Source: Candidatus Schekmanbacteria bacterium RIFCSPLOWO2_02_FULL_38_14
Lineage (GTDB): Bacteria; Schekmanbacteria; GWA2-38-11
Length of the DNA stretch: 64,000 bases
NCBI GenBank assembly: GCA_001790855.1
Contig: MGDH01000016.1
Coordinates: forward strand, 2,044 to 66,043
Direction: 5' to 3'
Both the position numbers and the translations under genes were made by a program. This document shows positions 21,668 to 64,000 of this stretch, piece by piece. Below the pieces are notes generated by a model. The model was given only the letters and a program-made list of their open reading frames with translations. It did no database searches and was not told the DNA's origin. Each line of letters starts with the position of its first letter. Positions within the stretch are counted from its first letter, which is position 1.

Positions 21668-22438
21668 TTATGATTTGCTTTTTACTTGCTTAAACATTGC
21701 TATTAAAACATGTCCCAAGAACATAGGTGATGAAACAAAATTTCGTTTCCACAATCGCCAAGGCTCTAGCATTAACCTTGGTAACCATTCTAATCCAAGA
21801 TGTTGTAACCATACAGGTGCTCGCTTTTTTGTACCAGCAAAATAATCGAATGCTGCTCCAACTGCACCAATAAATGAAACGTTAAGCTTATCTTTATTAT
21901 GATATATCCATTTTTCCTGTTTTGGAGCAGTCATGCCCACCCAAAGCACATCAGGTTTTGCATTGTTGATTGCCTCAATCATAAAGCTATTATCTTCTTT
22001 GCTAAAGTCTTCCTTAAAAGGGGGAGAATATGTCCCTGCAATTTTTATGTTTGGAAAAACAACCTTCATCCTATCTTTTATTTTTTCAAGAGTTTTCTCT
22101 GTTGAACCAAGAAAAAAATAACTATATTTTCTTTTTTTATTCAAAACATTACTGAGACCTATAAAAACATCACTTCCTGTAATCCGATCATAAATATTCC
22201 CTCCTAATATTTTTGAAGCGATCACAATCCCAACTCCATCTGGTGTTACAAGGTCAGCATTTTCTATTGCCGCACTAAAATCAGAGTCATTTCTTGCAAG
22301 TTCCAATGAATGCGGATTAGCACAAATAAAATACTTGTGCTTTTCTATGTTTTCAAGCCATCTAAGAATTGTAGAAATGCATTCTGTTTTCGATAGCGTG
22401 GTAATATTATAATCAAGTATTGACTCATGTGTTTTCAT
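21668..22438 (-). CDS. WecB/TagA/CpsF family glycosyltransferase (GT26)
   Basis: 256 aa. Motifs PDGVGIV, VGMTAPKQEKWI, GLEWLPRLMLEPWRLWKR. Confidence 0.85.
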   Translation of the reverse strand: MKTHESILDYNITTLSKTECISTILRWLENIEKHKYFICANPHSLELARNDSDFSAAIENADLVTPDGVGIVIASKILGGNIYDRITGSDVFIGLSNVLNKKRKYSYFFLGSTEKTLEKIKDRMKVVFPNIKIAGTYSPPFKEDFSKEDNSFMIEAINNAKPDVLWVGMTAPKQEKWIYHNKDKLNVSFIGAVGAAFDYFAGTKKRAPVWLQHLGLEWLPRLMLEPWRLWKRNFVSSPMFLGHVLIAMFKQVKSKS

Positions 22439-22447
22439 TTTTTCTCT

Positions 22448-23638
22448 CTATCTATTATTTTCAATTGCTTTTTGATAAATGCCTATTAATATTTCAAAAT
22501 TTTTCTCAAATGTATATTTCGCCTCAAACTCTGCACGAGCATTCTTACCCATCTCTATAGATGCATTAGTATTGTCTAACATCCATTTTATCTTTAAAGC
22601 AAGGTCATCAGGATTACCTGGTTCAAAAAAAAGTCCAGTTTTTCCATCCTCTACAATTTCCTCCATTACACCAAGTCGTGAGGCAATAATAGGCTTACCA
22701 CATGCAAAAGCTTCAATAACTGGTTTGCCAAAAGTCTCATAACATTCTGAAGTAAAAAATAAAAACATAGAATTCTTTATATTTTCTATAACTTCTTCCC
22801 AAGGAAGATAACCACATATTTTAACATTTTCCAATTTATGTTTAATAATAAATTCTTCTATATCCTTTTTCAAAGAACCATCTCCTATTATTTTCAATAC
22901 AATACCTTTTGAATCTATTTTCTTCCATGATTTCAATAGTGTCATTACTCCTTTTTCAGAAGTAAGTCTTCCAACAAAAAGTACAAATTTTTTAAAATTA
23001 AAATGAGGTTCTAAATTATTTTTGATAAAATTTGGTTTTACAAATATTTTCTCCGCTGGCAGGCTAGCCTTTATAAATTTTGATTTAGAAAACTCTGTTA
23101 AAATAATGAATGCATCTATTTTGGTATTCCATGTTCCTATAATTCTATGAAGATATTCCATAAAAGCCATCACTAGTGAAGAAGTTCTAGAATTTCTATA
23201 ACAACCATTTAGAAAGGCATTATAAGGTATTCTCCCTATACAATCCTCACATGTCTTACCATTTCTGAAAAGAAGACCATTCACACAAAATATTCTATAG
23301 TTGTGTAAAGTTTGAACTACAGGAATTCCAGCATCTTTACAGGCATAATAGGCCGATGGTGAGATTGTGTAAAAAATGTTATGAAAATGACATAAATCTG
23401 GTTTTTCTTTTTTTATTATAGACTTAAGTTCTTTATAACTCTTTAAAGACCATACAATATTGATTGGTAATTGTAATTTATTTTTAAACCTATAAGATAA
23501 AATTTCGTCATTATATTTTGTATATGTTATTACTTCTATCCCTTTTTTTTTCAAAAGTTCTAATTCATCTTTAAAGACAATATCTTCACCGCTTGGAGCT
23601 GTGGAAATATAGAAATTATGCACAAACAGTATTTTCAT
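22448..23638 (-). CDS. GT4 family glycosyltransferase
   Basis: 396 aa. GT-B layout, C-terminal E.FG.PVIEAFACGKPIIAS motif. Confidence 0.85.
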   Translation of the reverse strand: MKILFVHNFYISTAPSGEDIVFKDELELLKKKGIEVITYTKYNDEILSYRFKNKLQLPINIVWSLKSYKELKSIIKKEKPDLCHFHNIFYTISPSAYYACKDAGIPVVQTLHNYRIFCVNGLLFRNGKTCEDCIGRIPYNAFLNGCYRNSRTSSLVMAFMEYLHRIIGTWNTKIDAFIILTEFSKSKFIKASLPAEKIFVKPNFIKNNLEPHFNFKKFVLFVGRLTSEKGVMTLLKSWKKIDSKGIVLKIIGDGSLKKDIEEFIIKHKLENVKICGYLPWEEVIENIKNSMFLFFTSECYETFGKPVIEAFACGKPIIASRLGVMEEIVEDGKTGLFFEPGNPDDLALKIKWMLDNTNASIEMGKNARAEFEAKYTFEKNFEILIGIYQKAIENNR

Positions 23639-25004
23639 TTGTTGACCTTTTCACAAATGTTTTGGAATACAAATTTTTTCTATATTTTGCAAAATATGTA
23701 AAATAAGTATACAGAACACCCAAATAATACCAGAATACCACACTAGTTGCTCGACTGTCGAGCGTAGGATTAAACAATGAATCAAAAATTATAAGCATCA
23801 AAATAAGTATCACAATATTGAGAGAAACATTTTTTTTGCCATTGCTTTTTTCTATGCTCTTGTTCAAAAAATGAATCTTGAATATTCCATAAACAATTGT
23901 AAGATATGCTATCATAAGAAGCATACCACCTTGTAATAAAAACGAAATAATTTGACTTTCACTGCCAGGGTTTAAACCGCCGAGGGAGGCAGCACTGGTA
24001 TAAGCTCCCAAACCATCACCTTGAAAAAGGTGTTCTGGAATCATTTCACCCCAGAACATAACCCTTGCCCCTAACGACGCTGAAAAAAGCATTCTGCGCA
24101 AATAGCTGCTTTTTACCCCACCCATCATAAACTCATCTAGTTCATTTAATAAAACAGGATTAAAATATATAAGAAAAAATATGCACAAAATGACACCCGT
24201 CAACACCATCAAACGTTTTTTGTTTATAATATACTTTATTACAATAATTGCTATCATTAATCCCACCAATGACCCTCTCGAACCTACCAGTATAAGTGCT
24301 CCTATCAAACAAACATATATTATCCATTTAATAGGCACTTTGAGAAATGTACCGTTGTAGTAATATACGAAAAATATCCCAATAATAAAATATATCGCCG
24401 CTTCCCTGAGACCAGAAAAAATCGATATATATCTGTAAACACCCATATCAGCAAAATAGTTACCTCCTATAGTTGCATAACCACTACTTAGCCATGCCTT
24501 CTCAAAAGAGAAATAATTGTTCACCCGCTGAAGAAAAATATAAACAGTCCCAATAATAACAACTAAAAATATAAAATTGGAAAATTTATCTTTAAAAAAA
24601 TCATAGTCATAATTGTTTTTCAGGACTGTTTCTTTACCAAAAAAGTAGAAAAAAATATAAATTACAAATATCTTAATATAAGCTATTGAAACCAATACAT
24701 TTGACAGAAAAATTACGCCTGAAACAAATAATGAAAATAAAAAAAAGAATATTTTCTTATTTATAAAAAACAGGTGTTTACTTTTACATATTATATAAAA
24801 CAGCAAGAAAAAATCTGGAATTAGAAGCAAAGTATTATATAGAATACCCGGATCGCCACCAATAAACAAAAACCTTTTAAAGAAATTTGACAATATTATT
24901 AATGCCGCAAGGAAAATCAAATAGCTTCTAAAAAGAATGCCAAATAAAGATGCAATAGACATATACAAACTAAAAATCAAAAAAAACATTGGAGTGCCCC
25001 CCAT
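23616..25004 (-). CDS. O-antigen ligase/polymerase-like (Wzy-type) membrane protein
   Basis: 462 aa, at least 10 hydrophobic segments and extremely AT-rich. Central loop GSRGSLVGL is typical of the Wzy_C-type domain. The start is uncertain (M1 at 25004 or M6), because an IS remnant abuts it. Confidence 0.6.
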   Translation of the reverse strand: MGGTPMFFLIFSLYMSIASLFGILFRSYLIFLAALIILSNFFKRFLFIGGDPGILYNTLLLIPDFFLLFYIICKSKHLFFINKKIFFFLFSLFVSGVIFLSNVLVSIAYIKIFVIYIFFYFFGKETVLKNNYDYDFFKDKFSNFIFLVVIIGTVYIFLQRVNNYFSFEKAWLSSGYATIGGNYFADMGVYRYISIFSGLREAAIYFIIGIFFVYYYNGTFLKVPIKWIIYVCLIGALILVGSRGSLVGLMIAIIVIKYIINKKRLMVLTGVILCIFFLIYFNPVLLNELDEFMMGGVKSSYLRRMLFSASLGARVMFWGEMIPEHLFQGDGLGAYTSAASLGGLNPGSESQIISFLLQGGMLLMIAYLTIVYGIFKIHFLNKSIEKSNGKKNVSLNIVILILMLIIFDSLFNPTLDSRATSVVFWYYLGVLYTYFTYFAKYRKNLYSKTFVKRSTNENTVCA

Positions 25005-25083
25005 CGGTTAGACACAAAGAACCTCTGAGGATAGTAGGGTTTGACGAGTTCTATTTTTTATCTTTGCCACCAAGGATTCGTAT

Positions 25084-25263
25084 TCATTTGGTGGTTGGTG
25101 GACAATCTCCCAAGGCTGAATACAGCATCTTCTCATTGTACACTTCTTCGATAAAATAGGGAATGCGTTCCTTCACATCCTCAAAGGTTCTGTAGCCCCA
25201 AAAGGTATACTCCTCGTCCTTAAGGGTTTTGATAAAGCTTTCCGCAGTCCAGCTGCTTTGAGA
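25084..25263 (-). pseudogene. IS3-family transposase remnant (last ~59 codons of the integrase-core ORF)
   Basis: My own translation of the minus strand gives SQSSWTAESFIKTLKDEEYTFWGYRTFEDVKERIPYFIEEVYNEKMLYSALGDCPPTTK*. This matches the conserved C-terminal block of IS3 OrfB (AESF.KTLK.E......F.........IE.YN..R.HSALGY). An in-frame stop lies immediately upstream (25264-25266), and no remaining transposase body is present. Confidence 0.7.
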
Positions 25264-25289
25264 TCATCTACGTATTAACGAATGGCAAT

Positions 25290-26345
25290 TTACATACGAG
25301 CGCCGACAACTATAAACTCTTCCATTTGTTTATCCCCCAATCCCCAATTATCACCATTATAAACATATGAACGCCGACCTTCCACCATATCGATGATTAA
25401 ATTTTTAACATAATCCTTCTGTGTATAAACAATATTGGCTTTATCCAAATAGCTTTTTGATGGGATAAACTTACACCCCACTCCAGCCAAAATCTCCACT
25501 AAATGGTATGGTAGTTTTAACTTATTAAGAACTTTTTTCAAAAACACATATGAAGGCTTTTTCCATTTTGAATCATGATCAATATGATACAAACTTAAAG
25601 GCTTCTTAAAAACATACTGCTTTGCGCCTGATAAATGTGCCATGTATAGGAGCAGATCATCTGCTCCAGGGCTTATCCCTTCAGGAAAACCATGGATTAA
25701 ATGCCACCTCTCCCTAGAAAACAGCATAAAATCACCTGGAGCCTTGTCATGAAGAATGGGAATTTTTCTCTTTAACAAAAATTCAAATGGACCTGGAGTA
25801 TACATATCAATAATGTTTTGTTCACAGTATTTTAACTGCTCATCAATCGTTGTGATATCTAAAACCCTTCTATTCACATCACATCGATCTATACGATACA
25901 TTTTATCTTTTTCGAGTTTTTTGTTCGCAAAAAAATCAACTAGTTCTTCTGACAATAAAATGTCTATTACCGTAGACAGTATAAACTCACCTCTTGCCCT
26001 TCTGATTCCAACATTCCATGGAGTCAAATCGCGAATACTATAATCTTCAGACCAGTCATAGTTCCCAACTGTAGATGAAGGAACAACAACTGTGCGAACC
26101 CTACAATAACCTAATTTAGAAGGCCATGAATATATATCCTTTATTAAGGGCCTACCATTAGGAGGAATCCATTCTACAAGTATCAATTCAGATGATATTT
26201 TCTTTCTCTCCATTTGAGAAATAATGCCATCTATGCACACCTGCATCCTACGATACATATTAGCACTATGATTGTCGTTTCTAGATACAATTACGATACT
26301 TAAATAAGGATTGTCCTGTAATTGATTCTTTTCCGCTCCATGCAT
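25290..26345 (-). CDS. GT2-like glycosyltransferase
   Basis: 351 aa. N-terminal LSIVIVSRND, NVGIRRARGEFIL and GDFMLFSRERW blocks resemble GT-A/GT2 enzymes. Confidence 0.5.
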   Translation of the reverse strand: MHGAEKNQLQDNPYLSIVIVSRNDNHSANMYRRMQVCIDGIISQMERKKISSELILVEWIPPNGRPLIKDIYSWPSKLGYCRVRTVVVPSSTVGNYDWSEDYSIRDLTPWNVGIRRARGEFILSTVIDILLSEELVDFFANKKLEKDKMYRIDRCDVNRRVLDITTIDEQLKYCEQNIIDMYTPGPFEFLLKRKIPILHDKAPGDFMLFSRERWHLIHGFPEGISPGADDLLLYMAHLSGAKQYVFKKPLSLYHIDHDSKWKKPSYVFLKKVLNKLKLPYHLVEILAGVGCKFIPSKSYLDKANIVYTQKDYVKNLIIDMVEGRRSYVYNGDNWGLGDKQMEEFIVVGARM

Positions 26346-26349
26346 AAAT

Positions 26350-27063
26350 TCACTTCTTACATATAGAATGTGTTTCTAAAAAATCTTTTGCTTGTTTATA
26401 CCTTTTTGGGGTGCCTATATCAATCAATCTCTCTCTGGTATAAAAACCATAGATACACTGCCCTACAAGTTTAGGGAAAATATCATTTTCAAGCGAACAC
26501 TTTATACCTGAAGGTATTGCAGATAGAATACTCCTGTCAAAGAGATAAATGCCAGCACTAACCAGCTTCCCGCTGCCGTCCATTTTTTCATTAAATTTGA
26601 CAATTCTACCCAAATCATCAAGAACTATAGATCCAAAATCTCTCGCGTTTTGAATTTCGGTAACCACTATGGATAAATGGGACTTCTTTTTTATATGAAA
26701 ATCAACAAAATTTGCCAGATCAACATGACAAAAGGAGTCTCCATTTATAATCAAAAATGGACTAGATCTTATAAATTTATCAGCATTTTTTATTGCACCC
26801 GCAGTACCAAGAGGTGTCTTTTCTTCTGAAAAAACCAATTCAAATGAATGCTCTTTATCATTGTAATAATCTTTTACATAATCTGTCATATAGCCGGTGC
26901 AAAGGATGAAACGCTTAAAACCATAGGAGGATATATATTCAACTAATATATCAAGTAAAGGTCTGCCATTAATCTCAGCCATCGGTTTAGGTCTATCGTT
27001 TACAACTTTTTTTAAACGTGTACCCTCACCACCAATTAAAATCAAAGCGTCAATGTCTTTCAT
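26350..27063 (-). CDS. Sugar-1-phosphate nucleotidyltransferase (HddC-like, D-glycero-D-manno-heptose-1-P guanylyltransferase type)
   Basis: 237 aa. ILIGGEGTRLK..V.DRPKPM signature. Adjacent to an HddA-like kinase. Confidence 0.8.
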   Translation of the reverse strand: MKDIDALILIGGEGTRLKKVVNDRPKPMAEINGRPLLDILVEYISSYGFKRFILCTGYMTDYVKDYYNDKEHSFELVFSEEKTPLGTAGAIKNADKFIRSSPFLIINGDSFCHVDLANFVDFHIKKKSHLSIVVTEIQNARDFGSIVLDDLGRIVKFNEKMDGSGKLVSAGIYLFDRSILSAIPSGIKCSLENDIFPKLVGQCIYGFYTRERLIDIGTPKRYKQAKDFLETHSICKK

Positions 27064-27070
27064 GTGTAAA

Positions 27071-28069
27071 TTAATAGAAATCTTGTGTGGAATATAAAAC
27101 CACTTGGCTCCCTAACTTTTCAAAACCTAAAGGAACATATATAAGATTTTTTAATTTTTCCTTTATATGGTTGTGATATTCAGGCTTGGCAAATAAAAGT
27201 ATAAAACCACCGCCTCCAGCACCAAGCAGTTTACCACCTAAGGCACCTGCTTTTATTGAAACCTCATAAATTTCATCTATCCTGCCGTTAGTTATTAAAC
27301 TGGTAAGATTTTTCTTTATAATCCATGATTCATGAAGTAGTTTGCCAAAATCAGTGAGATCATTTGAATCACGGTCAAGAATACTAATGGCTTCACCCAC
27401 CATTTGCTTCATTGCACTTAATTCAGATATTTTGTTGTTGAGTTGTTTTATCTGTTCGACAGCAATGTTAGATGCATTCCTTGAAAATCCAGTAAAGAAT
27501 AATAGGAGATGAGATTGAAGTATATCTATTTTTTCCTGTTGAATAGTAATGGGATAAACATAAAATTCCTCTTCTCCGCCAAATTCAATTTTGTTAAAGC
27601 CCCCGAACGTCGTAGCCACCTGATCCTGTGAACCCACATTTTCTTTGATTAATTTTTGCTCCACATGAATCGCATCTGAAGCCAACTGTCTTTTGGTTAT
27701 AATTTTTCCTTTTAGAGCGTAGAGCGCGTTTAGCAATCCCACAGTAAAAGATGAGCTGGAACCTATTCCTGAACGTGCAGGGACATCGCTTGTATGTACT
27801 ATTTCCACGCCTCTATCAATCCCCATAAATCTCAAACACTCACGAACCGCAGGATGTTTTATTTCGTCAATACTTTGAGTCTCCTCACGTATTCTATACC
27901 TGATTAAATTTTTATAATCGAAAAAAGGTGGAAGATATCTACAACTAATGTAGCAGTATTTATTAAATGTCGTGCTAAGAACAACACCTCCATGTCCTTT
28001 ATACCAACCTGGATAATCCGTCCCACCACCAAAAAATGAAATACGAAACGGCGTTCTTGTAATAATCAT
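27071..28069 (-). CDS. GHMP sugar kinase (HddA-like heptose-7-phosphate kinase)
   Basis: 332 aa. TRTPFRISFFGGGTDYP N-terminus, GHMP motif PARSGIGSSSSF, C-terminal GAGGGGF. Confidence 0.82.
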   Translation of the reverse strand: MIITRTPFRISFFGGGTDYPGWYKGHGGVVLSTTFNKYCYISCRYLPPFFDYKNLIRYRIREETQSIDEIKHPAVRECLRFMGIDRGVEIVHTSDVPARSGIGSSSSFTVGLLNALYALKGKIITKRQLASDAIHVEQKLIKENVGSQDQVATTFGGFNKIEFGGEEEFYVYPITIQQEKIDILQSHLLLFFTGFSRNASNIAVEQIKQLNNKISELSAMKQMVGEAISILDRDSNDLTDFGKLLHESWIIKKNLTSLITNGRIDEIYEVSIKAGALGGKLLGAGGGGFILLFAKPEYHNHIKEKLKNLIYVPLGFEKLGSQVVLYSTQDFY

Positions 28070-28087: not shown

Positions 28088-29014
28088 TCAATAATTAGTT
28101 GCATCAGCTTGCCTTAAATGCCACTTCGAAAAATTATAAATATAATTGAATTCAGGTTTTAAAACCTTAACACAAAAATAAGATTCATATTCACCTTCTC
28201 TAAAACCGATTTCTTCGACCACTTTACGAACCATCGTTCCCGGAACGGCCCATGTTGTAATTTTATTTGCTCCCAGTTCTTTCAGATGCCAACATGCCCC
28301 AATAAAAAGCCTCTTTAATTTCCTGCTATCTTTCAACGAGCATTCAAAATCAACAATATCTCCGTAAGACGTCTTTGTAACAGGGTCTACGAACTTTTTT
28401 ATAATTGCAAACTCACCAGTATCAATCGTGACAATTGAATATGAATACATTGGATTTAGAGCATAACGCCAAAAACGATATTTTTGCGAATCTTGAAAAA
28501 TTATTATGCTATCCTGCTGCTTTTTGATCTCCGGGAAAACAGTCTTCTTTGTCACAGATTCGCATTTTGTTCCATTATTTACAATATCAGCCAAATAATC
28601 AAGAATTAATATTCGCAATGCACCGATTGTTTTAAAACCAAATGAGCGTTCACAGGGCAATTTTGCCCTCTTATTGGCAAAAATACACAATACGTCCAAA
28701 TCATTGAAGTTGCCGATTGCTGCTTGCCCTAATCTAGTAAAATGGCCTTTTTCTCTCCAACGTGGTGCAATATTTAAGTGGTTTGCCTGCCCGCATATTA
28801 AATTATGCGTCAGTTTCCTTTTTTGTATCCCAAATATACCCACCAGCTCATTACCGCAAAAACCACACATCAAAACTACAGGAATCACTGTTTCAAAACA
28901 TTGCCAAGTCCAAAATTCCTTTGGCCTTTTAATTTTATACATTGTACTGAGCAATGAATATATTACTGGAATATCTTCAGGTGTCGCTCGTCTGTAAATT
29001 ATATTATCACTCAT
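28088..29014 (-). CDS. Two-domain GNAT-like acyltransferase
   Basis: 308 aa. N-terminal IYRRATPEDIPVIYSL is GNAT-like; no strong further motif. Confidence 0.45.
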   Translation of the reverse strand: MSDNIIYRRATPEDIPVIYSLLSTMYKIKRPKEFWTWQCFETVIPVVLMCGFCGNELVGIFGIQKRKLTHNLICGQANHLNIAPRWREKGHFTRLGQAAIGNFNDLDVLCIFANKRAKLPCERSFGFKTIGALRILILDYLADIVNNGTKCESVTKKTVFPEIKKQQDSIIIFQDSQKYRFWRYALNPMYSYSIVTIDTGEFAIIKKFVDPVTKTSYGDIVDFECSLKDSRKLKRLFIGACWHLKELGANKITTWAVPGTMVRKVVEEIGFREGEYESYFCVKVLKPEFNYIYNFSKWHLRQADATNY

Positions 29015-34889: not shown

Positions 34890-34997
34890 TATGTTATTGA
34901 CTCTTGCATAAATAATGCAATGACGGGTATCTAAAGGGATATCCGCTATATGTCCAAAAGGTTCTGCAAATTTGGTCGTGTACCACCTTGCCCCGCA

Positions 34998-44502: not shown

Positions 44503-44543
44503 TAATCGGGCAGTAGTAAGCGAAATTATATCCTCACACAAAA

Positions 44544-50539: not shown

Positions 50540-50588
50540 AATGTTCTTTCAGATAGAGCATAGTGAAGAGGTAAAATATCGAAGGCTA

Positions 50589-51035: not shown

Positions 51036-51080
51036 ATATTCCTCCGAACTTCTACTCTATGCTCTATGCCATTTGCCTTT

Positions 51081-51737: not shown

Positions 51738-51757
51738 AAGATTCCCCTAACTATTAC

Positions 51758-52561: not shown

Positions 52562-52757
52562 TCCTTATCTCCTTACCCCTTGTTGGTGGTAAACTCCACA
52601 TTTCAATATAGTCTGGTTTCTATATTGATTAAGTTCTTCGATTGTTGCATCCATTGACGTTTGTTATCCCAACGGCTATTTGGTATAAACAATAGTATTT
52701 CAACAGAAAAATTATTCATACATAATTTTCTTTTTTGCTATATCAATTACATTATTC

Positions 52758-56235: not shown

Positions 56236-57005
56236 GAGAGTGCCTCCATAATTATTTTATATTCATCTTCATTTGGAATCTTGTGGTGCCATATCCCATG
56301 CCCTTCAAGCATAGGAACACCCTTTCCCTTAATGGTCTTTGCAATTATCACGATTGGTGCACCATTAACACAAAAATTTATATTTGATAAGGCAGATTTG
56401 ATCTCTGCTTCCGAATGCCCATCTATTACAATTGTGGTCCAGCCAAATGCCTTCCATTTCGAAGGAAAATCATCACGAGGCATTAACTGTGCGGCAGAAC
56501 CGTTCCAGTCCACCATAACACATAGATTTCCTAACTGAAGATTATTTGCAACATTAGCAGCTTCCCAAATAGTGCCTTCATGACACTCTCCATCTCCAAC
56601 AAGAACAAACACTCTGTTAGATTTGCCACGAATACGAAGTCCTAAAGCAATGCCAACAGCAAAAGAAAAACCGTGGCCAAGAGAACCTGTAGATGCCTCG
56701 ATTCCCGGAATTTTGGTGCAATCAGGATGCTCACCCAATATCCCTCCTGGTTTGCAAAACATATTAAGGTCATCTTCTGTAATAAACCCACAACTTTTAA
56801 GGACTACATACAGAGCAAGACACCCATGACCTTTACTTAAAATAAAATAATCACGATCTTCCCAATCAGGATTTTCAGGATCAAATCTAAGATAGTTTTT
56901 GTATAAAATGGCTATTATATCAACAATAGAAAATGCACTTGGAATATGACCATCCTTTCCCTTTCTAACCATTTCAACAATCCGTTTGCGATATTCCTCA
57001 TGCAT
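56232..57005 (-). CDS. Transketolase, N-terminal subunit, copy 2
   Basis: 257 aa. GHIPSAFS, LSKGHGCLA, ASTGSLGHG, GDGECHEGTIWEA. Confidence 0.9.
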   Translation of the reverse strand: MHEEYRKRIVEMVRKGKDGHIPSAFSIVDIIAILYKNYLRFDPENPDWEDRDYFILSKGHGCLALYVVLKSCGFITEDDLNMFCKPGGILGEHPDCTKIPGIEASTGSLGHGFSFAVGIALGLRIRGKSNRVFVLVGDGECHEGTIWEAANVANNLQLGNLCVMVDWNGSAAQLMPRDDFPSKWKAFGWTTIVIDGHSEAEIKSALSNINFCVNGAPIVIIAKTIKGKGVPMLEGHGIWHHKIPNEDEYKIIMEALS

Positions 57006-57034: not shown

Positions 57035-57811
57035 CTATTGCCCAAAATAACCTCTTCCCTGTCCTCCATCTATAGGAATAATGCTTCCCGTATTAAAAGA
57101 AGCTAATTCAGAACAAAGAAATGTGACAAAGTTTCCAATTTCTTCAGGTTGACCAAAACGCCCAATGCGCTGCCTTTCAGTCAGAAATTTTTTGACATGT
57201 TCAGGATTTTCTTTTAAGGTTATATCCCAATATCCCTTCTCTGTGAAAACCGCACCTGGAAGCACGGCAGAAACTACGACTCCATCTGGAGCAACGACAC
57301 CGCCAAAACTTCTTGTATACGCTGTCAAGGCAGCTTTTATTGCACAATAAGTTACAGGGCCATGGTTTTCCATCGAAGAAATAGAAGAAATGTGAACTAC
57401 ACGCCCCCACTTCTTTTTTTGCATATTTGGAACAAGAAGTATGTTTAATTCTACTGCAACTTCAAAATTGAAACGATATATACGTCTCCAATCCTGAATA
57501 GAACAAAAAGGATCCTTTATATCAAGTGTACCACCAAGATTATGTACCAATATAGATGGCTTTCCAAAGTCCTTATTAAGTATTTTAACAAGTTCTGCAG
57601 GACCGGTATCATCGGTCAGGTCAAGTGTTATTCCTAAATGTCCCTTAACTTTTCCACCTATTTCATCTATCAAGCTTTCTACATCAGCAGAAGTCCTTGA
57701 AACAACGGCAACACGCGATCCTTCCCTTGCAAGACATTGTGCTATAGCCCGCCCAATACCACGACCTCCGCCAGTTACTAAAGCTAACCGGCCAAAAATT
57801 CCTAAATTCAA
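57035..57811 (-). CDS. Classical SDR oxidoreductase
   Basis: 258 aa. TGGGRGIGRA, YCAIK (YxxxK). Confidence 0.88.
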   Translation of the reverse strand: MNLGIFGRLALVTGGGRGIGRAIAQCLAREGSRVAVVSRTSADVESLIDEIGGKVKGHLGITLDLTDDTGPAELVKILNKDFGKPSILVHNLGGTLDIKDPFCSIQDWRRIYRFNFEVAVELNILLVPNMQKKKWGRVVHISSISSMENHGPVTYCAIKAALTAYTRSFGGVVAPDGVVVSAVLPGAVFTEKGYWDITLKENPEHVKKFLTERQRIGRFGQPEEIGNFVTFLCSELASFNTGSIIPIDGGQGRGYFGQ

Positions 57812-57827
57812 AATAATCTCCTTAATA

Positions 57828-59030
57828 TCAAATTATATGTAAAGGATAGATAATATGCTTAGGTCTGAATGCAAATAGTTTAGTCATTATAGGTTTAATA
57901 TTATCAATCGCAGTAACAAAAATAGTTAACCCATTAGTATTTTCAATTTTATTTGAATGTTGAACTTGAACCGGAAGGTTAGCATAAAACAAATCATCTT
58001 TTTCTTTGTCATCATCAATGACTGCTTTCAAAAACGAAAGGTCAGTTTTTAAATGATATGCTAAAACCGGAAGCATCAGAGCAGCACCATACCCGTATAT
58101 ATGGGTGTTCTTGAATTCAAATAATATTTTTCTCGTATTATCCATTTGGCTGAAAAACAGGTTTCTCTTGCGTTCAATATCTTCTTTTGCAAAAGGGAAT
58201 TTAAAGCGTTTTTGTTTTGAAGTCTTTTTTCTAAAAGCAACAATTAAAGCACCCCAATTGTGATAATTTTCAGTAAAACCTATTAACTCAGCTCCGCATT
58301 TTTCTAAAAGAACACTGAGCGAGCTTAAACTAAAGTATTGTAAATGTTCATGAAAAACCTGATCAAACCTTCCTTTTGTTATCAAAGATTCAAATCCTGG
58401 CATTTCAAAAAGGAAAAGTGTATTTGCGGTGGAACAATCAATCAGTTTTTTTAAAACAGTTTGAGGGTCAAAAATATGTTCAAGAGTATGCCTGCACACA
58501 ATTAGATCAGGCTTACAGGGAAGGGCTTTTTCTAAATCAATGTCTTCAAGTGCCCCTCCTATAACGTGTAAATTTTGGTCATCATTATCTGGTTTTTTTG
58601 AAGTCCATATAGGATCAATTCCTATCCTTGTCTTTCCAAAGGATTTCATTTTATTTAGTAAATATAAATCATTACATCCCACATCAATAATGCACTCAAT
58701 TTTTTTGTTTGGAATAAGAGTTTTTAAATAATCAAGAAATATTTCAGTCCCATGTTGCGCGGTTGTACTTAAAGAAGTTCTGAAAGTATATTTCTGAGAA
58801 TCATAAAGTATTTCAGGATTAATCTGATTTCGAAGTTGACCATGTCCGCATTCCGGACACCATAACAAAGCTTGATCAAACCCTTCTGAAAAATCAGCAT
58901 GCTTTTTTTTTGAAAACAAACCAGTAATTGGCAATTCCGGCATACTCATAATCTCAATGAGATTTTCATTATTGCAAACTGCACACCACGATCTTTTACA
59001 TACAATTATATCTTCATGCTTTATGGACAT
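57828..59030 (-). CDS. NDP-hexose C-methyltransferase (TylCIII/EvaC-type architecture)
   Basis: Start moved to MSIKHEDIIVC (ATG 59030). N-terminal Cys4 Zn motif (CAVC...CPECG), SAM motif IIDVGCNDLYLL, C-terminal domain. The track start 59234 would overlap the upstream gene by 221 nt. Confidence 0.75.
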   Translation of the reverse strand: MSIKHEDIIVCKRSWCAVCNNENLIEIMSMPELPITGLFSKKKHADFSEGFDQALLWCPECGHGQLRNQINPEILYDSQKYTFRTSLSTTAQHGTEIFLDYLKTLIPNKKIECIIDVGCNDLYLLNKMKSFGKTRIGIDPIWTSKKPDNDDQNLHVIGGALEDIDLEKALPCKPDLIVCRHTLEHIFDPQTVLKKLIDCSTANTLFLFEMPGFESLITKGRFDQVFHEHLQYFSLSSLSVLLEKCGAELIGFTENYHNWGALIVAFRKKTSKQKRFKFPFAKEDIERKRNLFFSQMDNTRKILFEFKNTHIYGYGAALMLPVLAYHLKTDLSFLKAVIDDDKEKDDLFYANLPVQVQHSNKIENTNGLTIFVTAIDNIKPIMTKLFAFRPKHIIYPLHII

Positions 59031-60012
59031 AATCGAGCGGCTCCTTTTTAATCTGCTCCCAATCATTCTCAACCCATTTGACAACGCCAGCCAAACCCTC
59101 TTCCATAGAGATAGTTGGTTTCCATTCAAATTCTTTTCTCGCTTTACCAGAATCAATAACATAGGCAGCATCCTGCCCAAGCCTCTCAGCAACTGTTTTT
59201 GTTGCCTTATTAAAATCGAGTCCCATTTTTTCACAAATAATACGCACTACATCCCTTACAGCAATCCCTTGATCCGGAGACAGGTGGTAGATTTCACCTG
59301 TTCTTCCTTTTTCCATCGCAGCAAGTTCCCCGATTGAAATATCTCTTATATGGATATAAGACTTGACTGCTTTGCCACCACCGTGAAGCTCAATAATCTT
59401 TCCTAACTTTAAATAAATTGCTGACCTTGGAATAATTTTAAATAATTGCTGGTGCGCACCATATACATTGGTAGAACGGATCATTACCATTGGAAATCCA
59501 AAGTTCTTCACAAAAGTAAAAAGTGACAAATCCCCTGCAGCCTTAGATGCTGCATAAGGAGTACTGGAATTTAGCGGAGCGTCTTCTTTTACAATTCCTA
59601 CGCAGGTGCCATATACTTCAGGAGAAGAAATATGAACATACCGTCTAAGAAATTTACGGTCTTTTAAAGCGTGTGCTAATTCAGTAATTGAAACTGCATT
59701 TGTTTGAAACCACTGGCCAGGATTTTCCCAACTCGGAGCTACCTCGCTTTGTGCAGCAAAATTCACTACAAAGTCGGGTTTAAAAGAATCAACCAGATTG
59801 ATAACCTGAGACATACCTTTATTCAAATCCATCTTATAAAATTTAAAGTCCGGGTTCTTGCTCTTCTTGTAAGGTAAAAACAAAGCACTTTTCTCCGGTG
59901 ACCTGCTGATACCTGCAACCGAGTATCCTCCCTTTTCCAGCAACAAATCTATAAAATCGCTACCCGAAAAAGAGTTACTGCCTATTACTATAACTTTCTG
60001 TTTACTTTGCAT
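59014..60012 (-). CDS. NDP-hexose 4,6-dehydratase family SDR
   Basis: 332 aa. VIGSNSFSGSDF, ISSPEVYG, TPYAASKAAGD. Confidence 0.78.
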   Translation of the reverse strand: MQSKQKVIVIGSNSFSGSDFIDLLLEKGGYSVAGISRSPEKSALFLPYKKSKNPDFKFYKMDLNKGMSQVINLVDSFKPDFVVNFAAQSEVAPSWENPGQWFQTNAVSITELAHALKDRKFLRRYVHISSPEVYGTCVGIVKEDAPLNSSTPYAASKAAGDLSLFTFVKNFGFPMVMIRSTNVYGAHQQLFKIIPRSAIYLKLGKIIELHGGGKAVKSYIHIRDISIGELAAMEKGRTGEIYHLSPDQGIAVRDVVRIICEKMGLDFNKATKTVAERLGQDAAYVIDSGKARKEFEWKPTISMEEGLAGVVKWVENDWEQIKKEPLDYVHKA

Positions 60013-60039
60013 TATTCACCTTGGTACTCTTGAACATTA

Positions 60040-60090
60040 GAAGTGAGGTAATAAGAAATGGGAACCCATTTCTCACTTCCCATTACCTCA
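60040..60090 (-). other. Nested intercistronic stem-loop (no U-tract)
   Basis: On the minus strand: GAGGTAAT-gggaagtg-AGAAATGGG-tt-CCCATTTCT-t-ATTACCTC. Lies between the E1-beta stop and the dehydratase start. Confidence 0.3.
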
Positions 60091-60118
60091 TTTCAATATA
60101 GCCTATATGGAGCATTTT

Positions 60119-61177
60119 TTAAAAAGGACCGGTAAATGATCTGTCCGGAACATCCAGAGGGGTATCATGAAAAATTCCGAGTTCTTCTTCACTCCGCAAG
60201 GGAAGTCCAAACATCTTTCCGGCTGCATTGACAATATCAACAGATTTAGGATAATAATGATTTGCCAGTGCCCAACTTGTTGGAGTTGGAACGTCCGGAA
60301 ATGTCACACGGGAAGGAGCAGATTTCAGATAGCTATGCGCCTTTTCACATACAAATGCTATTATTTCGGCAGAAACACCAAAGCTGCGCCATGCACCATC
60401 TACTACCAAAAGATGGCCAGTTCTCCTAACAGAGTCTAAAATTAATTCTTCGTCCATGGGTTTAATCGTTCTCAAATCTATAACGTCGGAGTTGATTCCG
60501 CCTTTGGCAAGAATATCTGCTGCTTTTAATGCCTCTAAAGACATGTACGATGAAGCAACGATTGTTATTGAATTCCCTTCTCGCATTTTTTTTGCTTTGC
60601 CTATAGGAACGCGATACATCTCCTCTGGAACATGACCAAATATATTATGCAACCAGCGGTGTTCGAGATAAATAACCGGGTTATCATCTTCAATTGCTGC
60701 TATCAATAAACCTTTAGCATCATATGGCGTAGTCGGCATCACAACCTTCAACCCGGGAATATGCGCAAAAATAGACTGCAGGCTCTGCGAGTGCTGTGGC
60801 CCCTGACCCCAACCCCTCCCAATAATCAAACGGATTACCAAAGGTACTTTCATCTTTCCACCAAACATATAGTGCCATTTTGCTGCATTATTGATGATTT
60901 GATCCAATGATAAGAGCATAAAATCAATACGCTGGTGGGTAATAATTGGCCGCATCCCTACCAGAGATGAACCTATCGCAACCCCTGTCATTCCATTCTC
61001 TGCAACGGGCATATCCATTACCCTTTTACTGCCAAACTTTTTTTCAAGACCAATGGTGGTTCCAAATATTCCTTTGGGATCAGTAACACCAAGGCCCATA
61101 ATATAGACAGAAGGGGCATTTTCCAGACACTGGCTTGTGGCCTCAAGAATTGCCTGTGCGTAATTAAGTTCCCGCAT
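60119..61177 (-). CDS. ThDP-dependent 2-oxoacid dehydrogenase E1 component, beta subunit-like
   Basis: 352 aa. DMPVAENGMTGVAIG, GRGWGQGPQHSQS and a C-terminal transketolase-C-like domain. Confidence 0.88.
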   Translation of the reverse strand: MRELNYAQAILEATSQCLENAPSVYIMGLGVTDPKGIFGTTIGLEKKFGSKRVMDMPVAENGMTGVAIGSSLVGMRPIITHQRIDFMLLSLDQIINNAAKWHYMFGGKMKVPLVIRLIIGRGWGQGPQHSQSLQSIFAHIPGLKVVMPTTPYDAKGLLIAAIEDDNPVIYLEHRWLHNIFGHVPEEMYRVPIGKAKKMREGNSITIVASSYMSLEALKAADILAKGGINSDVIDLRTIKPMDEELILDSVRRTGHLLVVDGAWRSFGVSAEIIAFVCEKAHSYLKSAPSRVTFPDVPTPTSWALANHYYPKSVDIVNAAGKMFGLPLRSEEELGIFHDTPLDVPDRSFTGPF

Positions 61178-62160
61178 TATCTTAATTCGTCCCCAGCATA
61201 AACATCAGAATAAATTTGATTAATCTCAGGGAAAGGGCTCTCCTTAGCAAAATTAATCGCCGCATCAATTTCCGATCTAATCTTTTGCCTGAACTCTTTA
61301 ATCTGCTGCTGAAGAAGAATTCCCTCCTGAAGTAAACGCTTTTCAAAGTTTTCCACAGGGCATTTCTGGTACCATTCCATAAACTCTTCTTCCGACCGAT
61401 AGCCCAAATTATTATCATAATTAGGTCCGCAGTGCTCGCGAAACCTATATGTATCAAACTCAATAAAGGAGGGCCCTAAACATTTGCGGGCATGTTCAAT
61501 GGCTTTCCCAGCAATATGATCTACTACCTCTACATCATTACCATCCCCCTTTTCACTGTATATACCAAATGCCCTTGCAATAGATAAATTATCACGTTCT
61601 TCTGGCTGACGAACTGAAAGCGGCGAATATACAGAATAAAAGTTGTTCTCACAAACAAAAACAACCGGCAATTTTTTCAAGGCAGCAAAGTTTAAACTCT
61701 CACAAAACACCCCTTCCTCTGTAGCGGCGTCTCCCAAAAAAACAACTGTAACTCTATTTTCTCCTTTCATAACTGTTCCAAAAGCAACTCCTACAGCAAC
61801 CGGAATAATTCCTCCTACTATAGGGGTCGATCCCAAATAATTTACTTCAAGATCTACAAGATGCATAGAACCTCCTTTGCCTTTTGTACAACCAGTGGCT
61901 TTGCCTAATATTTCCGCCATCATCGCTCTAAGACTGCCTCCTTTGGCAAGAAAGTGGCCATGACTCCTGTGGTTACTCATTACATAGTCTTCTTTTCTAA
62001 GATTTGCACAGACACCCGCGGCTATGGCTTCCTGGCCTGAGCAGAGATGGACTGGACAACGCATCTGTTGTTCAGGATATAACTCTACAATGGTTTCCTC
62101 CACCATGCGGATTTTTAACATATTATAATAAAGCTCTAACTTTTTTTCTTTAATAATCAT
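61177..62160 (-). CDS. ThDP-dependent 2-oxoacid dehydrogenase E1 component, alpha subunit-like
   Basis: 327 aa. GQEAIAAG, HRSHGH, GGSMH, ThDP motif GDAATEEG...CENN. 1-nt overlap with the beta gene. Confidence 0.88.
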   Translation of the reverse strand: MIIKEKKLELYYNMLKIRMVEETIVELYPEQQMRCPVHLCSGQEAIAAGVCANLRKEDYVMSNHRSHGHFLAKGGSLRAMMAEILGKATGCTKGKGGSMHLVDLEVNYLGSTPIVGGIIPVAVGVAFGTVMKGENRVTVVFLGDAATEEGVFCESLNFAALKKLPVVFVCENNFYSVYSPLSVRQPEERDNLSIARAFGIYSEKGDGNDVEVVDHIAGKAIEHARKCLGPSFIEFDTYRFREHCGPNYDNNLGYRSEEEFMEWYQKCPVENFEKRLLQEGILLQQQIKEFRQKIRSEIDAAINFAKESPFPEINQIYSDVYAGDELR

Positions 62161-62169
62161 TTTTAAAAA

Positions 62170-63183
62170 TTATTTTAGGTTAATTGCCTGCATGGTTTTA
62201 ATGTTGTAATATTTCTTATCCTCCATAGGATTAGGAATCTTACCCGCATTAAATGCAGCACAGAGATCTCTTGCAGCCTGCTCAACTGTTCTCTTGGCTA
62301 CAAATCCCAGCTCTCTTTTGATTTTTTCCGAAGAAACATGATAAGAACGGTTGTCATCTGTAGGCGTTGTAACAACCTCTATCCTGTCATTATTCATCTC
62401 CCTGGAAACTACTTTCCGCACCACTTGTGCAATTTCTTTGATTTTCATGTTGTCATATCCTGCATTAAAAATTTTACCATCAATTTTATCATCCGGATAC
62501 TCAAGCGTTTTTGCGTACAAGTCAGTCATGTCTCCGATATGAATATTAGGCCTTTTCTGCTCACCGCCAAAAACCATAATCCTGCCTTTATTCACTGCAT
62601 GATTAGTAAGAATATTAACCGAAAGGTCCAAACGTAGCCTCGGTGAATATCCGCAAACCGTGGCAGGCCTCAGCACCAAAACAACAAAGCCTGGGGTACG
62701 TTGCTCCATTAGATAAGTCTCACATAATGCCTTATACTTTGAATAATCAGTCAGAGGTTCTAATGGCAAATCTTCAGTAACATTCTCCTCTTCTTTTATA
62801 CCATAAACACTGGAACTTGAAGCATAAATGAATCTTTTCACTCCAACCTTTTTGGCGATATCAACCAAAGAGATAAAAGCATCATAATTAATGGACTTAC
62901 CCAACTCTGGATTGAGTTCATAACTGGGATCATTGGATATACAGGCAAGATGGATAACTGCATCTACACCTTGAAGTTCCCGCCAAAGTAAACTATCATC
63001 TCTAATATCTCCCTTAATCTGTTTCAAATTGGGATTGTCTTTTACTGAATCTAAAACATCATCACCATAAATATATAAATCAATTACTTTAACACAATAG
63101 CCTTTGTTCAGCAGTTTTGGCACTAATACAGCACCAACATAACCTGCGCCACCTGTTACCAAAACTTTTTTTGAACTACTCAT
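62170..63183 (-). CDS. Extended SDR NAD-dependent sugar epimerase
   Basis: Start moved to MSSSKKVLVTGGAGYVG (ATG 63183, preceded by GGAGGAAAG). ASSSSVYG, YSKYK (YxxxK). Confidence 0.85.
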   Translation of the reverse strand: MSSSKKVLVTGGAGYVGAVLVPKLLNKGYCVKVIDLYIYGDDVLDSVKDNPNLKQIKGDIRDDSLLWRELQGVDAVIHLACISNDPSYELNPELGKSINYDAFISLVDIAKKVGVKRFIYASSSSVYGIKEEENVTEDLPLEPLTDYSKYKALCETYLMEQRTPGFVVLVLRPATVCGYSPRLRLDLSVNILTNHAVNKGRIMVFGGEQKRPNIHIGDMTDLYAKTLEYPDDKIDGKIFNAGYDNMKIKEIAQVVRKVVSREMNNDRIEVVTTPTDDNRSYHVSSEKIKRELGFVAKRTVEQAARDLCAAFNAGKIPNPMEDKKYYNIKTMQAINLK

Positions 63184-63210
63184 ATAAAACTTTCCTCCAA
63201 AGGGTTCCAA

Positions 63211-64000
63211 CTATTTTAATAGTGCATGGATAAACTCAAGGACTTCATATTTCTCAACTGGTTTTTTATTGCATACAATCTGAACTGCTAAAGCTCCTGC
63301 TGCATTTCCAATAAAGGAAACTAAATCCAAAGGTATACCTTTGGCAATGCATGGAGCGGTATAAGCAAAGAACGCATCTCCGGCACCAACTGTATCAATT
63401 ACCTTAGTTGAAAATACAGGCGTTCGATTTATCTCACCATTGCTATTTACAGCTATTGAGCCGTGTTTACCTCTTGTTACCATAAAATAGTCGCTATCAA
63501 TGGCTCGAGCAATGTTCTTAGCGACATCTTCAATATTGGCATATTTTTCCTGAGCTGTGAGCCTGACCTCGGTTTCATCCAGGCAGACATAGGTTGGCTT
63601 ATAATATTTCGTAACCATATTGTAACCTGCATTTGCGGCATTTGTCTGGGTATTAACTGCAAATTTCTTTGCAAATTTTTCAATGACTTTGATTATTTTA
63701 TTGGTAATAAAGCCATGGCCAAAATCTGATATCAAAACTATATCATAGGAAGGTATTACAGTTTTTAAATACTTGATGACCTGTGACTCAAGGTCATCAT
63801 TAATATAGCTATCACTTAAATAGTTAACTTCAAATAATTTTTGATTAAAATACTGGTTAATATATCTCTTTTTAACAATAGTTGGGCCATCTACTCTGTA
63901 GAAAAAATTTGTCTTTATGTTAGGCTTAAGATTGGCCTTAATAAAATCTTCTCTTGAATCCTCTCTGCCAAGTAAAGAAACTAACAGCAAATCGTTACAT
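63211..64000 (-). CDS. PfkB-family carbohydrate kinase (N-terminus beyond window)
   Basis: The frame is open to position 64000, and the track's TTG at 63990 is probably internal. C-terminal PfkB signature DTVGAGDAF. Confidence 0.8.
   Translation of the reverse strand, partial: CNDLLLVSLLGREDSREDFIKANLKPNIKTNFFYRVDGPTIVKKRYINQYFNQKLFEVNYLSDSYINDDLESQVIKYLKTVIPSYDIVLISDFGHGFITNKIIKVIEKFAKKFAVNTQTNAANAGYNMVTKYYKPTYVCLDETEVRLTAQEKYANIEDVAKNIARAIDSDYFMVTRGKHGSIAVNSNGEINRTPVFSTKVIDTVGAGDAFFAYTAPCIAKGIPLDLVSFIGNAAGALAVQIVCNKKPVEKYEVLEFIHALLK

Follow-up and report, generated by a model that had tools for sequence, protein, structure and literature searches.

The 64,000-nucleotide stretch of DNA analysed here (referred to as the window, at its full length) belongs to contig MGDH01000016.1 of Candidatus Schekmanbacteria bacterium RIFCSPLOWO2_02_FULL_38_14, an uncultivated groundwater bacterium from the Rifle aquifer metagenome-assembled genomes (MAGs), with a genome of 2.5-2.7 Mb. 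From position 21668 to its right-hand edge the window contains the downstream two-thirds of a surface-glycan locus of 62 genes, all encoded on one strand, which extends from window-equivalent position ~86.1 kb to 21668 (~64.4 kb). We consider it likely that this is a Wzx/Wzy-dependent locus for a capsule or an O-antigen-like polymer and that it is read through by antitermination based on a cis-encoded RfaH-like NusG paralog and an operon polarity suppressor (ops) element. Although its size and its wealth of odd sugar-tailoring enzymes are unusual, the locus belongs to an already known type of system, of which it is a large example. It is distinguished by its length, the rfaH-like gene in cis, a pair of GT2 and GT-C glycosyltransferases, and the combination of three B12-binding radical S-adenosylmethionine (SAM) enzymes with a MiaB-like enzyme and three thiamine diphosphate (ThDP) enzyme pairs. 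Thus, ~2.4% of the genome of a candidate-phylum bacterium would be devoted to one surface polymer, and an RfaH-like factor, encoded in cis, occurs together with ops, letter for letter, outside the Proteobacteria.

Extent and soundness of the locus

Considering open reading frames (ORFs) of at least 100 aa, 41 consecutive ORFs, numbered g1 to g41 from position 21668 to 63990 at the window edge, lie on the minus strand, and the only plus-strand ORFs in this region are nested inside them. This bears out a preliminary description of the DNA, which had reported a 41-gene, 42-kb run on one strand. Coding density over 21668-63990 is 96%, the GC content is 35.4% as compared to 37.5% in the flank, and in the left flank (1-21543) the strand switches six times among 21 genes. 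Most neighbouring genes had been described as overlapping or less than 60 nt apart, which is the case (at most 60 nt, or an overlap, at 33 of the 40 junctions), and the positions given for the five spacers of more than 100 nt match exactly (25005-25289, 285 nt; 34890-34997, 108 nt; 44381-44543, 163 nt; 52562-52757, 196 nt; 60013-60118, 106 nt), as does the 1-nt overlap at 61177. Three of four proposed ATGA overlaps are present (29011-29014, 29526-29529, 36639-36642), whereas the fourth, at 56232-56235, is a TTGA with a TTG start codon. Hidden Markov model (HMM) searches against Pfam and NCBIfam supported nearly all domain calls for the ORFs of the window and placed none of the ORFs of the array in primary metabolism.

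The last ORF (63211-64000) continues past the end of the window, as its match to PfkB begins at profile position 55 and the complete gene, present on longer contigs, encodes 510 aa. That the upstream end lies outside the window had been anticipated, and ~22 kb more of the glycan locus indeed follow on the same strand past position 64000. The array as first described is therefore real, but the full locus has ~64 kb and 62 genes rather than 42 kb and 41. Its upstream part was read on L001 and L092, which are pieces of one 96.7-kb contig (L001 1-6507 equals L092 14454-20960 at 100% identity). Window positions 64000-51177 correspond to L001 8161-20984 at 99.96%, and window-equivalent coordinates are 86614 minus the L092 coordinate. 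We place the start of the locus at ~86.1 kb because the genes further upstream belong to primary metabolism; this boundary holds a 382-aa unknown protein, PabB/PabC-like genes, a Mut7-C gene on the opposite strand, a 2-oxoacid:ferredoxin oxidoreductase (POR) and succinyl-CoA synthetase (SucCD). The downstream boundary is formed by an uncharacterised plus-strand NTP_transf_5 gene (20464-21543) that converges on g1, by a toxin-antitoxin pair of an MNT-type Polbeta nucleotidyltransferase and HepT (19575-20422) next to the end of the locus, and by housekeeping genes (LeuRS, MurI, MltG, SmpB). As the flank also encodes LptE, the organism appears to be a diderm that makes lipopolysaccharide (LPS).

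The preliminary description had named a chimeric assembly of unrelated loci as the circumstance that would overturn it. Nothing in support of a chimera was found, 20 loci from independent assemblies (ENA, JGI, three NCBI MAGs, Logan) are collinear with window positions 16350-64000 at 99.91-100% identity without any rearrangement, and the 96.7-kb contig covers the locus as far as the gene before Gmd#1, one of two Gmd genes upstream of the window. The assembly is thus sound and the probability of a chimera practically negligible. Several assemblies break 5-7 kb upstream of g39, probably reflecting co-existing variants. In L005 and L006 (MAG GWA2_38_9) ~50 nt inside g40 (62798-62847) are missing, and the GWA2_38_9 contig also remains unaligned over ~113 nt in g28 (51722-51834); these differences are strain variants or scaffold gaps.

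The RfaH-like protein and its ops element

In E. coli, ops is read by RfaH to suppress polarity. The Schekmanbacteria locus encodes, on the same strand and upstream of the window, a 166-aa NusG paralog whose best NCBIfam model is RfaH (TIGR01955, 111.7 bits), ahead of UpxY (80.7 bits) and NusG (34.6 bits). Its best match in the PDB is E. coli RfaH, over residues 1-160 (E-value (E) 4e-15), with NusG at 7e-7. The gene is followed by a 288-nt leader in which, 47 nt after the stop codon and on the coding (non-template) strand, there is an element, GGCGGTAGCTTG, that matches the ops consensus of E. coli, GGCGGTAGnnTG, exactly (L020 4276-4287, equivalent to L092 8731-8742). The 64.9-kb composite locus contains no further exact match, the expected number being 0.027 (1.2e-4 for the leader), and no exact ops occurs in the window or, searched on both strands, in 770 kb of unrelated loci. 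Leader and ops are found at the same offset in the relative L087, whose RfaH-like protein is 87% identical, and in a more distant relative (L086, 67%) the RfaH-like gene is followed by a short leader with an ops variant that contains two mismatches, GTCTGTAGCTTG. In L086 (6101-6179) this variant precedes four to five tandem copies of the 8-mer AGCTTGNN.

In an AlphaFold (AF2) model of the 98%-identical protein P0121, based on a shallow alignment of 13 sequences, residues 118-165 of the C-terminal domain (CTD) form β strands (predicted local distance difference test (pLDDT) 81-87), i.e. a β-barrel CTD rather than the α-helical, autoinhibited form is tentatively predicted. RfaH occurs in 23 of 117 phyla, but ~95% of RfaH proteins are proteobacterial (PMC7593976), whereas the host phylum here is Schekmanbacteria. 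A 'monomorphic' class of RfaH with a β-CTD, whose genes neighbour long LPS operons and for which action in cis is proposed, has been described in a 2026 preprint (PMC13015549). With its predicted β-barrel and its gene located within the long operon that it presumably targets, the present protein appears to fit this class, yet monomorphic RfaH proteins are reported to act largely independently of ops (PMC13015549), whereas a perfect ops, conserved in relatives, is present here. Thus, the locus may serve as a natural test case for the proposed monomorphic, cis-acting stage of RfaH evolution.

By analogy with E. coli, the RfaH-like factor and ops probably allow RNA polymerase to read through the locus. 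The protein would be made in cis and be recruited where RNA polymerase encounters ops in the leader, and the polymerase would then resist termination and polarity over the remaining 56 kb. Read-through of this kind, as proposed, would explain the expression of a long one-strand array with short spacers.

Assembly genes, proposed working and alternatives

The genes that point to a Wzx/Wzy-type system are situated at both ends and in the middle of the locus. Reading back from the RfaH-like gene on the same strand, there are a Wzz/GNVR polysaccharide co-polymerase (PCP; 403 aa) and a Wza-like outer-membrane polysaccharide export (OPX) protein of 958 aa with FN3, Poly_export and six SLBB domains, followed at the head of the locus by an SxtJ-like protein, a 616-aa O-carbamoyltransferase and the GDP-mannose dehydratase Gmd#1. 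At the opposite end, g1 (21668-22438), the last gene of the locus, encodes a WecG/TagA-type GT26 glycosyltransferase (PF03808, E 2e-60) and g2 (22448-23638) a GT4 glycosyltransferase of the GT-B type (Glycos_transf_1, E 7e-37, and Glyco_transf_4). The neighbouring g3 (23616-24962) encodes a polytopic membrane protein with ~12 transmembrane segments, resembling Wzy polymerases and O-antigen ligases (Wzy_C, E 1.2e-4), and occupies the position of the Wzy_C gene in the small cluster of the relative L085. g24 (45831-47273) encodes a Wzx-like flippase (NCBIfam WZX_like, E 6e-18, covering profile positions 2-423 of 429) with at least nine predicted transmembrane segments; its 65 bits stay below the curated score of 300, and a member of a g24 cluster carries the UniRef name Polysacc_synt_C. 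The cluster of L085 is a textbook one of nine genes, namely Wza, Wzz, Bac_transf, flippase, GT4, Wzy, GT4, GT26 and Wzi, and its frame is kept at both ends of the present locus with ~50 tailoring genes in between.

Two further transferases are encoded side by side. For g20 (40651-42222), a membrane protein without any HMM match, the AF2 model is of high confidence (pLDDT 90.7, predicted template-modelling (TM) score 0.91), and a Foldseek search of the PDB retrieved GT-C enzymes only among the top 25 hits, ArnT (5ezm/5f15) being the best (TM score 0.56, probability 1.00), with further fold matches to AglB, PglB, AftA/B and PMT. The family is tiny, as a search of 1.84 billion proteins yielded 146 representatives at E<1e-3. 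The acidic motif (DE/DxD) of the first extracytoplasmic loop of GT-C enzymes is represented by D35, which is conserved in 90% or more of 42 members of the family and followed in g20 by E36, and three of the 42 give weak PMT_2 matches. By its predicted fold and the conserved N-terminal D-E motif g20 is a GT-C enzyme. The adjacent g21 (42245-42955) encodes a GT2 enzyme (PF00535, E 2e-15) and is, by analogy with GtrB and ArnC, likely a polyprenyl-phosphate sugar synthase that partners g20; judging from this adjacency, g20 may use a polyprenyl-phosphate-linked donor. Export and assembly parts comprising a flippase, a Wzy/ligase-like protein and GT2, GT4, GT26 and GT-C transferases had been proposed in the preliminary description and are supported, the Wzy assignment by a weak match and GT-C by a predicted structure.

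Based on these genes, we suggest the following mode of action for the locus. Repeat units would be built on undecaprenyl phosphate, started by an initiating transferase that is presumably encoded elsewhere, and extended by GT26, GT4 and other transferases from several unusual donors. These may include one or more GDP-6-deoxyhexoses, a derivative of GDP- or ADP-heptose that has passed through dehydration, epimerisation, reduction and O-methylation, a 6-deoxyhexose that acquires a C-methyl group or C-branch through the action of a dehydratase, a C-methyltransferase and E1 α/β, and a CMP-activated amino-ulosonic acid. Wzx would then flip the unit, and the Wzy-like protein would polymerise it under the control of Wzz. 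In the periplasm, the GT-C enzyme would add a sugar from the polyprenyl phosphate donor made by the GT2 enzyme, and the polymer would finally be exported via the Wza-like channel.

Several observations speak against this interpretation. The RfaH-like protein scores below the NCBIfam RfaH cut-off (111.7 as compared to 144.5 bits), and of the residues that we take to contact ops in E. coli RfaH (K10, H20, R23, Q24, H65 and R73) K10 and R73 are conserved in the phmmer alignment, while H20 is replaced by N, R23 by N, Q24 by M and H65 by P. The leader gives no match to JUMPstart or any other Rfam family up to E 10. Scans for σ70 promoters and intrinsic terminators returned the same counts as shuffled sequence in all regions, none of the RNA runs searched holds the locus, so that we infer both the operon structure and the dependence on RfaH, and the five spacers of 106-285 nt, a relic of an insertion sequence (IS) and a pronounced hairpin may be boundaries between separately transcribed units. 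Moreover, neither a Bac_transf nor a Glycos_transf_4 domain, indicative of an initiating phosphoglycosyl transferase of the WbaP or the WecA/MraY type, is found among the 62 proteins (the search covered the locus, not the whole genome), and a Wzc-type tyrosine kinase was not found in the 64-kb locus. The assignment of g3 as a Wzy-like polymerase is weak (22 bits with a cut-off of 31.7), and the protein is not distinguishable from a WaaL-type ligase. Finally, none of the nucleotide-sugar enzymes reaches an NCBIfam equivalog cut-off, and g4, g7, g11, g16, g19, g23 and g31 have weak family assignments or none.

A first alternative is that the locus is an LPS O-antigen locus of the rfb type, in which the polymer is ligated to lipid A-core, possibly by g3 as the WaaL-type enzyme, and exported by the Lpt system. 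The Wzy_C domain is common to ligases and polymerases, the Wzz-type PCP lacks a kinase domain, LptE in the flank indicates that the organism makes LPS, and the combination of a conserved 3′ assembly part with a variable tailoring part resembles the rfb locus of Leptospira. However, a 958-aa Wza-like OPX exporter, for which O-antigen export has no need, heads the locus, and Wzi is also present in the cluster of L085, a relative, so that we regard a true O-antigen locus as rather unlikely. A second alternative concerns the unity of the locus, which might be a mosaic of at least two head-to-tail glycan systems, each with its own promoter, for example a capsule and a mobile CMP-sugar cassette together with a separate branch for LPS or protein glycosylation in which the GT-C enzyme acts. 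This would agree with the five spacers above 100 nt, with the relics of an IS3 transposase and a frameshifted oxidoreductase in spacers, and with the fold of g20, which also matches oligosaccharyltransferases. Comparison with relatives points in the same direction: a co-occurring variant (L020) is 100% identical through the end of gmhA and only 70-80% identical thereafter, the RfaH/ops leader of L087 borders immediately on a deoxyhypusine-synthase-like gene located 13 kb further down in the present locus, the 13 kb that follow ops here being absent from this position in L087, and the CMP-sugar cassette stands alone in many phyla. Yet there is a single Wzx-like and a single Wzy-like gene, the head with its one OPX/PCP pair and the tail with the assembly transferases form the same frame as in L085, the region is 96% coding with many overlapping stop and start codons, and the spacer scan revealed no strong terminator in any spacer. 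Independent systems under separate promoters are a doubtful description of the locus in our view.

The set of B12-binding radical SAM enzymes, C-methyltransferase, E1 α/β pair, carbamoyltransferase, class III aminotransferase and NUDIX enzyme is typical of antibiotic sugars and would fit the tailoring in a secondary-metabolite cluster for a heavily modified glycoside, similar to aminoglycosides or orthosomycins. We rejected this candidate on gene content, as there are no polyketide synthase, non-ribosomal peptide synthetase, cyclitol or aglycone genes but Wzx-like, Wzy-like, GT-C, Wzz and Wza genes, and consider it very improbable.

Tailoring genes, a shared cassette and known systems

The tailoring genes of the window fall into a few enzyme classes. 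Three of the four radical SAM enzymes, g13 (33342-34889), g22 (42992-44380) and g25 (47324-49423, with a C-terminal extension of 300 aa), combine an N-terminal B12-binding domain (PF02310) with PF04055 and have their CxxxCxxC motif at residues 201-202; none of the three reaches an NCBIfam equivalog cut-off. The fourth, g10 (30577-31755), is of the MiaB/RimO family (UPF0004 and radical SAM domains, without TRAM; TIGR00089 194 bits with a cut-off of 251) and carries the motif CNYKCTYC, i.e. CxxxCxxC is present in all four. In the literature, no cobalamin-dependent radical SAM enzymes in capsule clusters were found. The three ThDP pairs are two split transketolase-like enzymes, g14/g15 (34998-36642; Transket_pyr, Transketolase_N E 2e-33, GDG...NN in g15) and g33/g34 (55303-57005; 38-40% identical to the first pair), and an E1 β/α pair, g38/g39 (60119-62160; NF006667 317 bits with a cut-off of 321, E1_dh E 9e-65). 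Both totals agree with the earlier counts of four radical SAM enzymes and three ThDP pairs. Among ten proteins listed previously as short-chain dehydrogenases/reductases (SDRs), nine are SDRs and the tenth is a zinc-dependent alcohol dehydrogenase of the medium-chain (MDR) type, and of five methyltransferases four have HMM support (g28, g32, g36 and, weakly, g16), whereas the fifth is unsupported.

Extended SDRs are encoded by g9 (29526-30524; PF01370, E 2e-41), g12 (32359-33318; PF01370, E 3e-46), g17 (37394-38395) and g40 (62170-63183), and classical SDRs by g29, g30 (52758-53570, its start taken from gene calls on other contigs) and g35 (57035-57811). g9, g12 and g17 are paralogous, and a simple pattern search revealed no YxxxK near residue 150 in any of them; they may use a variant catalytic motif. 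g18, which together with g17 covers 37394-39395, is a Gmd-like NDP-sugar 4,6-dehydratase (PF16363, E 5e-74; TIGR01472 171 bits with a cut-off of 415), and g37 (59014-60012) is an SDR similar to NDP-hexose 4,6-dehydratases (TIGR01181 190 bits with a cut-off of 365). g5 and g6 (26350-28069) encode a sugar-1-phosphate nucleotidylyltransferase and a GHMP kinase, HddC-like (144 bits) and HddA-like (148 bits), respectively, and thus of the GDP-heptose type, both below the equivalog cut-offs; g8, which together with g9 spans 29011-30524, is an RmlC-like cupin 3,5-epimerase (PF00908, E 3e-44). g41 (63211-64000) comprises the C-terminal 263 aa of the 510-aa cytidylyl/adenylyltransferase with a PfkB kinase, HldE-like with reversed domain order. 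The zinc-dependent dehydrogenase g26, a NUDIX protein (g27), the SAM methyltransferase g28 and the SDR g29 are encoded at 49493-52561, a further SAM methyltransferase (g32) at 54612-55292, and g36 (57828-59030), with a zinc-binding Methyltransf_13, an MT_23 and a weak MT_14 match, is of the sugar C-methyltransferase type. g16 (36639-37397) is a class I methyltransferase, weakly TylF-like (PF13578 E 3e-5, PF05711 E 1e-3, below cut-off). As the nucleotide-sugar enzymes are below the equivalog cut-offs, the sugars named here are analogies only.

Among the genes with little similarity to known families, g19 (39444-40574) is weakly similar to bacterial polysialyltransferases (GT38; PF07388, E 4e-4); the family is rare, only five homologues having been found, one of them with PF07388, and its HP motif is invariant. 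g4 (25290-26345, 351 aa), g7 (28088-29014, 308 aa), g23 (44544-45773) and g31 (53545-54600) have no match in Pfam, NCBIfam or the PDB, and g11 (31820-32332, 170 aa) has none in Pfam or NCBIfam. g23 and g31 form an orphan family of two paralogues (29% identity, E 3e-39), whose 90% clusters are restricted to this population. Sequence and profile searches of the PDB with g4, g7, g19, g23 and g31 yielded nothing, and the NCBI annotation is hypothetical protein. Judging from motifs, g23 and g31 may be GT9-like heptosyltransferases, g4, the N-terminus of which looks GT2-like, a GT2 enzyme, g7 a GNAT protein and g11 a methyltransferase of the FkbM type.

Upstream of g41, reading back on the same strand, the locus encodes a small cytidylyl/adenylyltransferase, the deoxyhypusine-synthase-like protein, the frameshifted oxidoreductase relic, two classical SDRs, an AP_endonuc_2 TIM-barrel protein, a GmhA-type isomerase, a methyltransferase, a glyoxalase/vicinal oxygen chelate (VOC) protein, a class III aminotransferase, a CMP-type cytidylyltransferase, a NeuB-like synthase, a haloacid dehalogenase (HAD) enzyme similar to KDN-9-P phosphatase, Gmd#2 and two extended SDRs, before the leader is reached. 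Seven of these form a cassette (L092 12168-17487), i.e. the GmhA-like isomerase, NeuB-like synthase, HAD phosphatase, CMP-transferase, class III aminotransferase, VOC protein and methyltransferase. A search anchored on the aminotransferase retrieved 47 non-redundant loci in other organisms (relatives L007-L067; aminotransferases 50-73% identical), the hosts including Planctomycetota, Candidatus Methanoperedens, the candidate phyla radiation (CPR) groups Wildermuth- and Staskawiczbacteria, Omnitrophota, Acidimicrobiaceae, Fluctibacter, Bryobacter and others, so that the cassette reaches archaea, CPR bacteria, Actinobacteria and one gammaproteobacterium. In the 19 loci of at least 12 kb, for which neighbours were counted, the aminotransferase is accompanied by the CMP-transferase in 15, the NeuB-like synthase in 14, the VOC protein in 11, the GmhA-like isomerase in nine, the methyltransferase in seven, a g22-like B12-binding radical SAM enzyme in five and a split transketolase in two. 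In two of these five loci, which belong to other phyla, g22 orthologues with 65-71% identity lie beside the CMP-sugar cassette. No paper describing the cassette was found in the literature. Judging from its genes, the cassette may provide a route to a novel amino-ulosonic acid activated with CMP, and its occurrence in archaea, CPR and several other phyla points to uncharacterised nucleotide-sugar pathways. We can only tentatively propose that the locus represents a sugar chemistry undescribed for bacterial polysaccharides, in which a new CMP-activated amino-ulosonic acid, possibly based on a heptose phosphate and then of more than nine carbons, is combined with anaerobic tailoring. In the latter, sugars would receive C-methyl, two-carbon or even thiomethyl branches from the three B12-binding radical SAM enzymes, the MiaB-like enzyme and the three ThDP pairs. 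We regard such a chemistry as rather unlikely at present.

Apart from Gmd#1 and Gmd#2 (55%), no paralogues within the locus share more than 40% identity; being old, they indicate that the locus has grown by acquisition and not by recent duplication. The transition from identity to divergence in L020 is sharp, with a recombination breakpoint just after gmhA (L020 ~13050, equivalent to L001 ~3050).

The enzymes in part resemble those of a known heptose pathway. The modification of capsule heptose in C. jejuni involves GmhA, HddA, HddC, a 4,6-dehydratase, cupin epimerases, reductases and an O-methyltransferase, and the present locus has GmhA, the HddA-like g6, the HddC-like g5, the Gmd-like g18, the RmlC-like g8, the SDRs g9, g12 and g17 and the methyltransferase g16. 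However, all of these enzymes are below the equivalog cut-offs, no GmhB phosphatase was identified, and the capsule of C. jejuni depends on an ABC transporter (Kps) and not on Wzx/Wzy. The arrangement of the GT2 enzyme g21 next to the GT-C enzyme g20, with ArnT as the best structural match, is reminiscent of the ArnC/ArnT and GtrB/GtrC pairs, although the sequence identity of g20 to ArnT is 11-12% and no GtrA-type flippase was seen in the locus.

As to overall organization, group 1 capsule and colanic-acid loci of E. coli and Klebsiella comprise ~20 genes in ~20 kb, with a PCP that contains a tyrosine kinase, a Wzb phosphatase and the initiating transferase inside the locus, while rfaH is unlinked and acts in trans. 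They share with the present locus the Wza-type OPX protein and PCP at the head, probably Wzx/Wzy assembly, ops GGCGGTAGnnTG in the non-template strand of the leader and a NUDIX enzyme (their WcaH), but the Schekmanbacteria locus is three times longer, includes the rfaH-like gene, and neither a kinase, nor an initiating transferase, nor an Rfam JUMPstart match was found in it. In Bacteroides, capsular loci are long one-strand polysaccharide operons headed by a locus-specific, cis-encoded NusG paralog, UpxY. Here, in contrast, the protein scores better as RfaH (111.7 as compared to 80.7 bits), ops is present, and no UpxZ or invertible promoter was seen. Very large size and a conserved 3′ end with Wzy-pathway and transferase genes next to a variable tailoring block are also features of the rfb locus of Leptospira. 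That locus starts with a MarR regulator and has no OPX exporter, whereas an RfaH/ops pair and OPX are present here, and organism and enzyme set differ. The earlier statement that the locus goes well beyond textbook examples thus holds for E. coli-type loci but not for Leptospira rfb, which encodes 88 proteins in L. interrogans serovar Lai (PMC10958091).

Some minor elements are found in spacers and in the flank. An Rfam scan of the window gave no match at gathering thresholds. The 106-nt spacer between g38 and g37, which folds at -30 kcal/mol (RNAfold), contains a 17-bp near-perfect hairpin on the minus strand (60044-60090) that is not followed by a U tract and might act in the processing or stability of RNA or as a pause site. 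In the 285-nt spacer between g3 and g4 there is a presumed insertion-sequence relic of ~59 residues (25084-25263, minus strand, frame 1 of the coding strand; translation ...AESFIKTLKDEEYTFWGYRTFEDVKERIPYFIEEVYNEKMLYSALG...), which by its motifs, not by an HMM, resembles the C-terminus of an IS3-type transposase. The oxidoreductase relic upstream of the window (L001 5555-5898, in a 344-nt spacer) appears to be a decayed gene, with two out-of-frame fragments similar to the C-terminus of a flavin adenine dinucleotide-dependent oxidoreductase (…GLINLVTIESPGLTASPSIG…). In the left flank, a 664-aa protein (1115-3109, minus strand) is weakly similar to M6-like metalloproteases that depend on the type IX secretion system (E 2e-11, far below cut-off).

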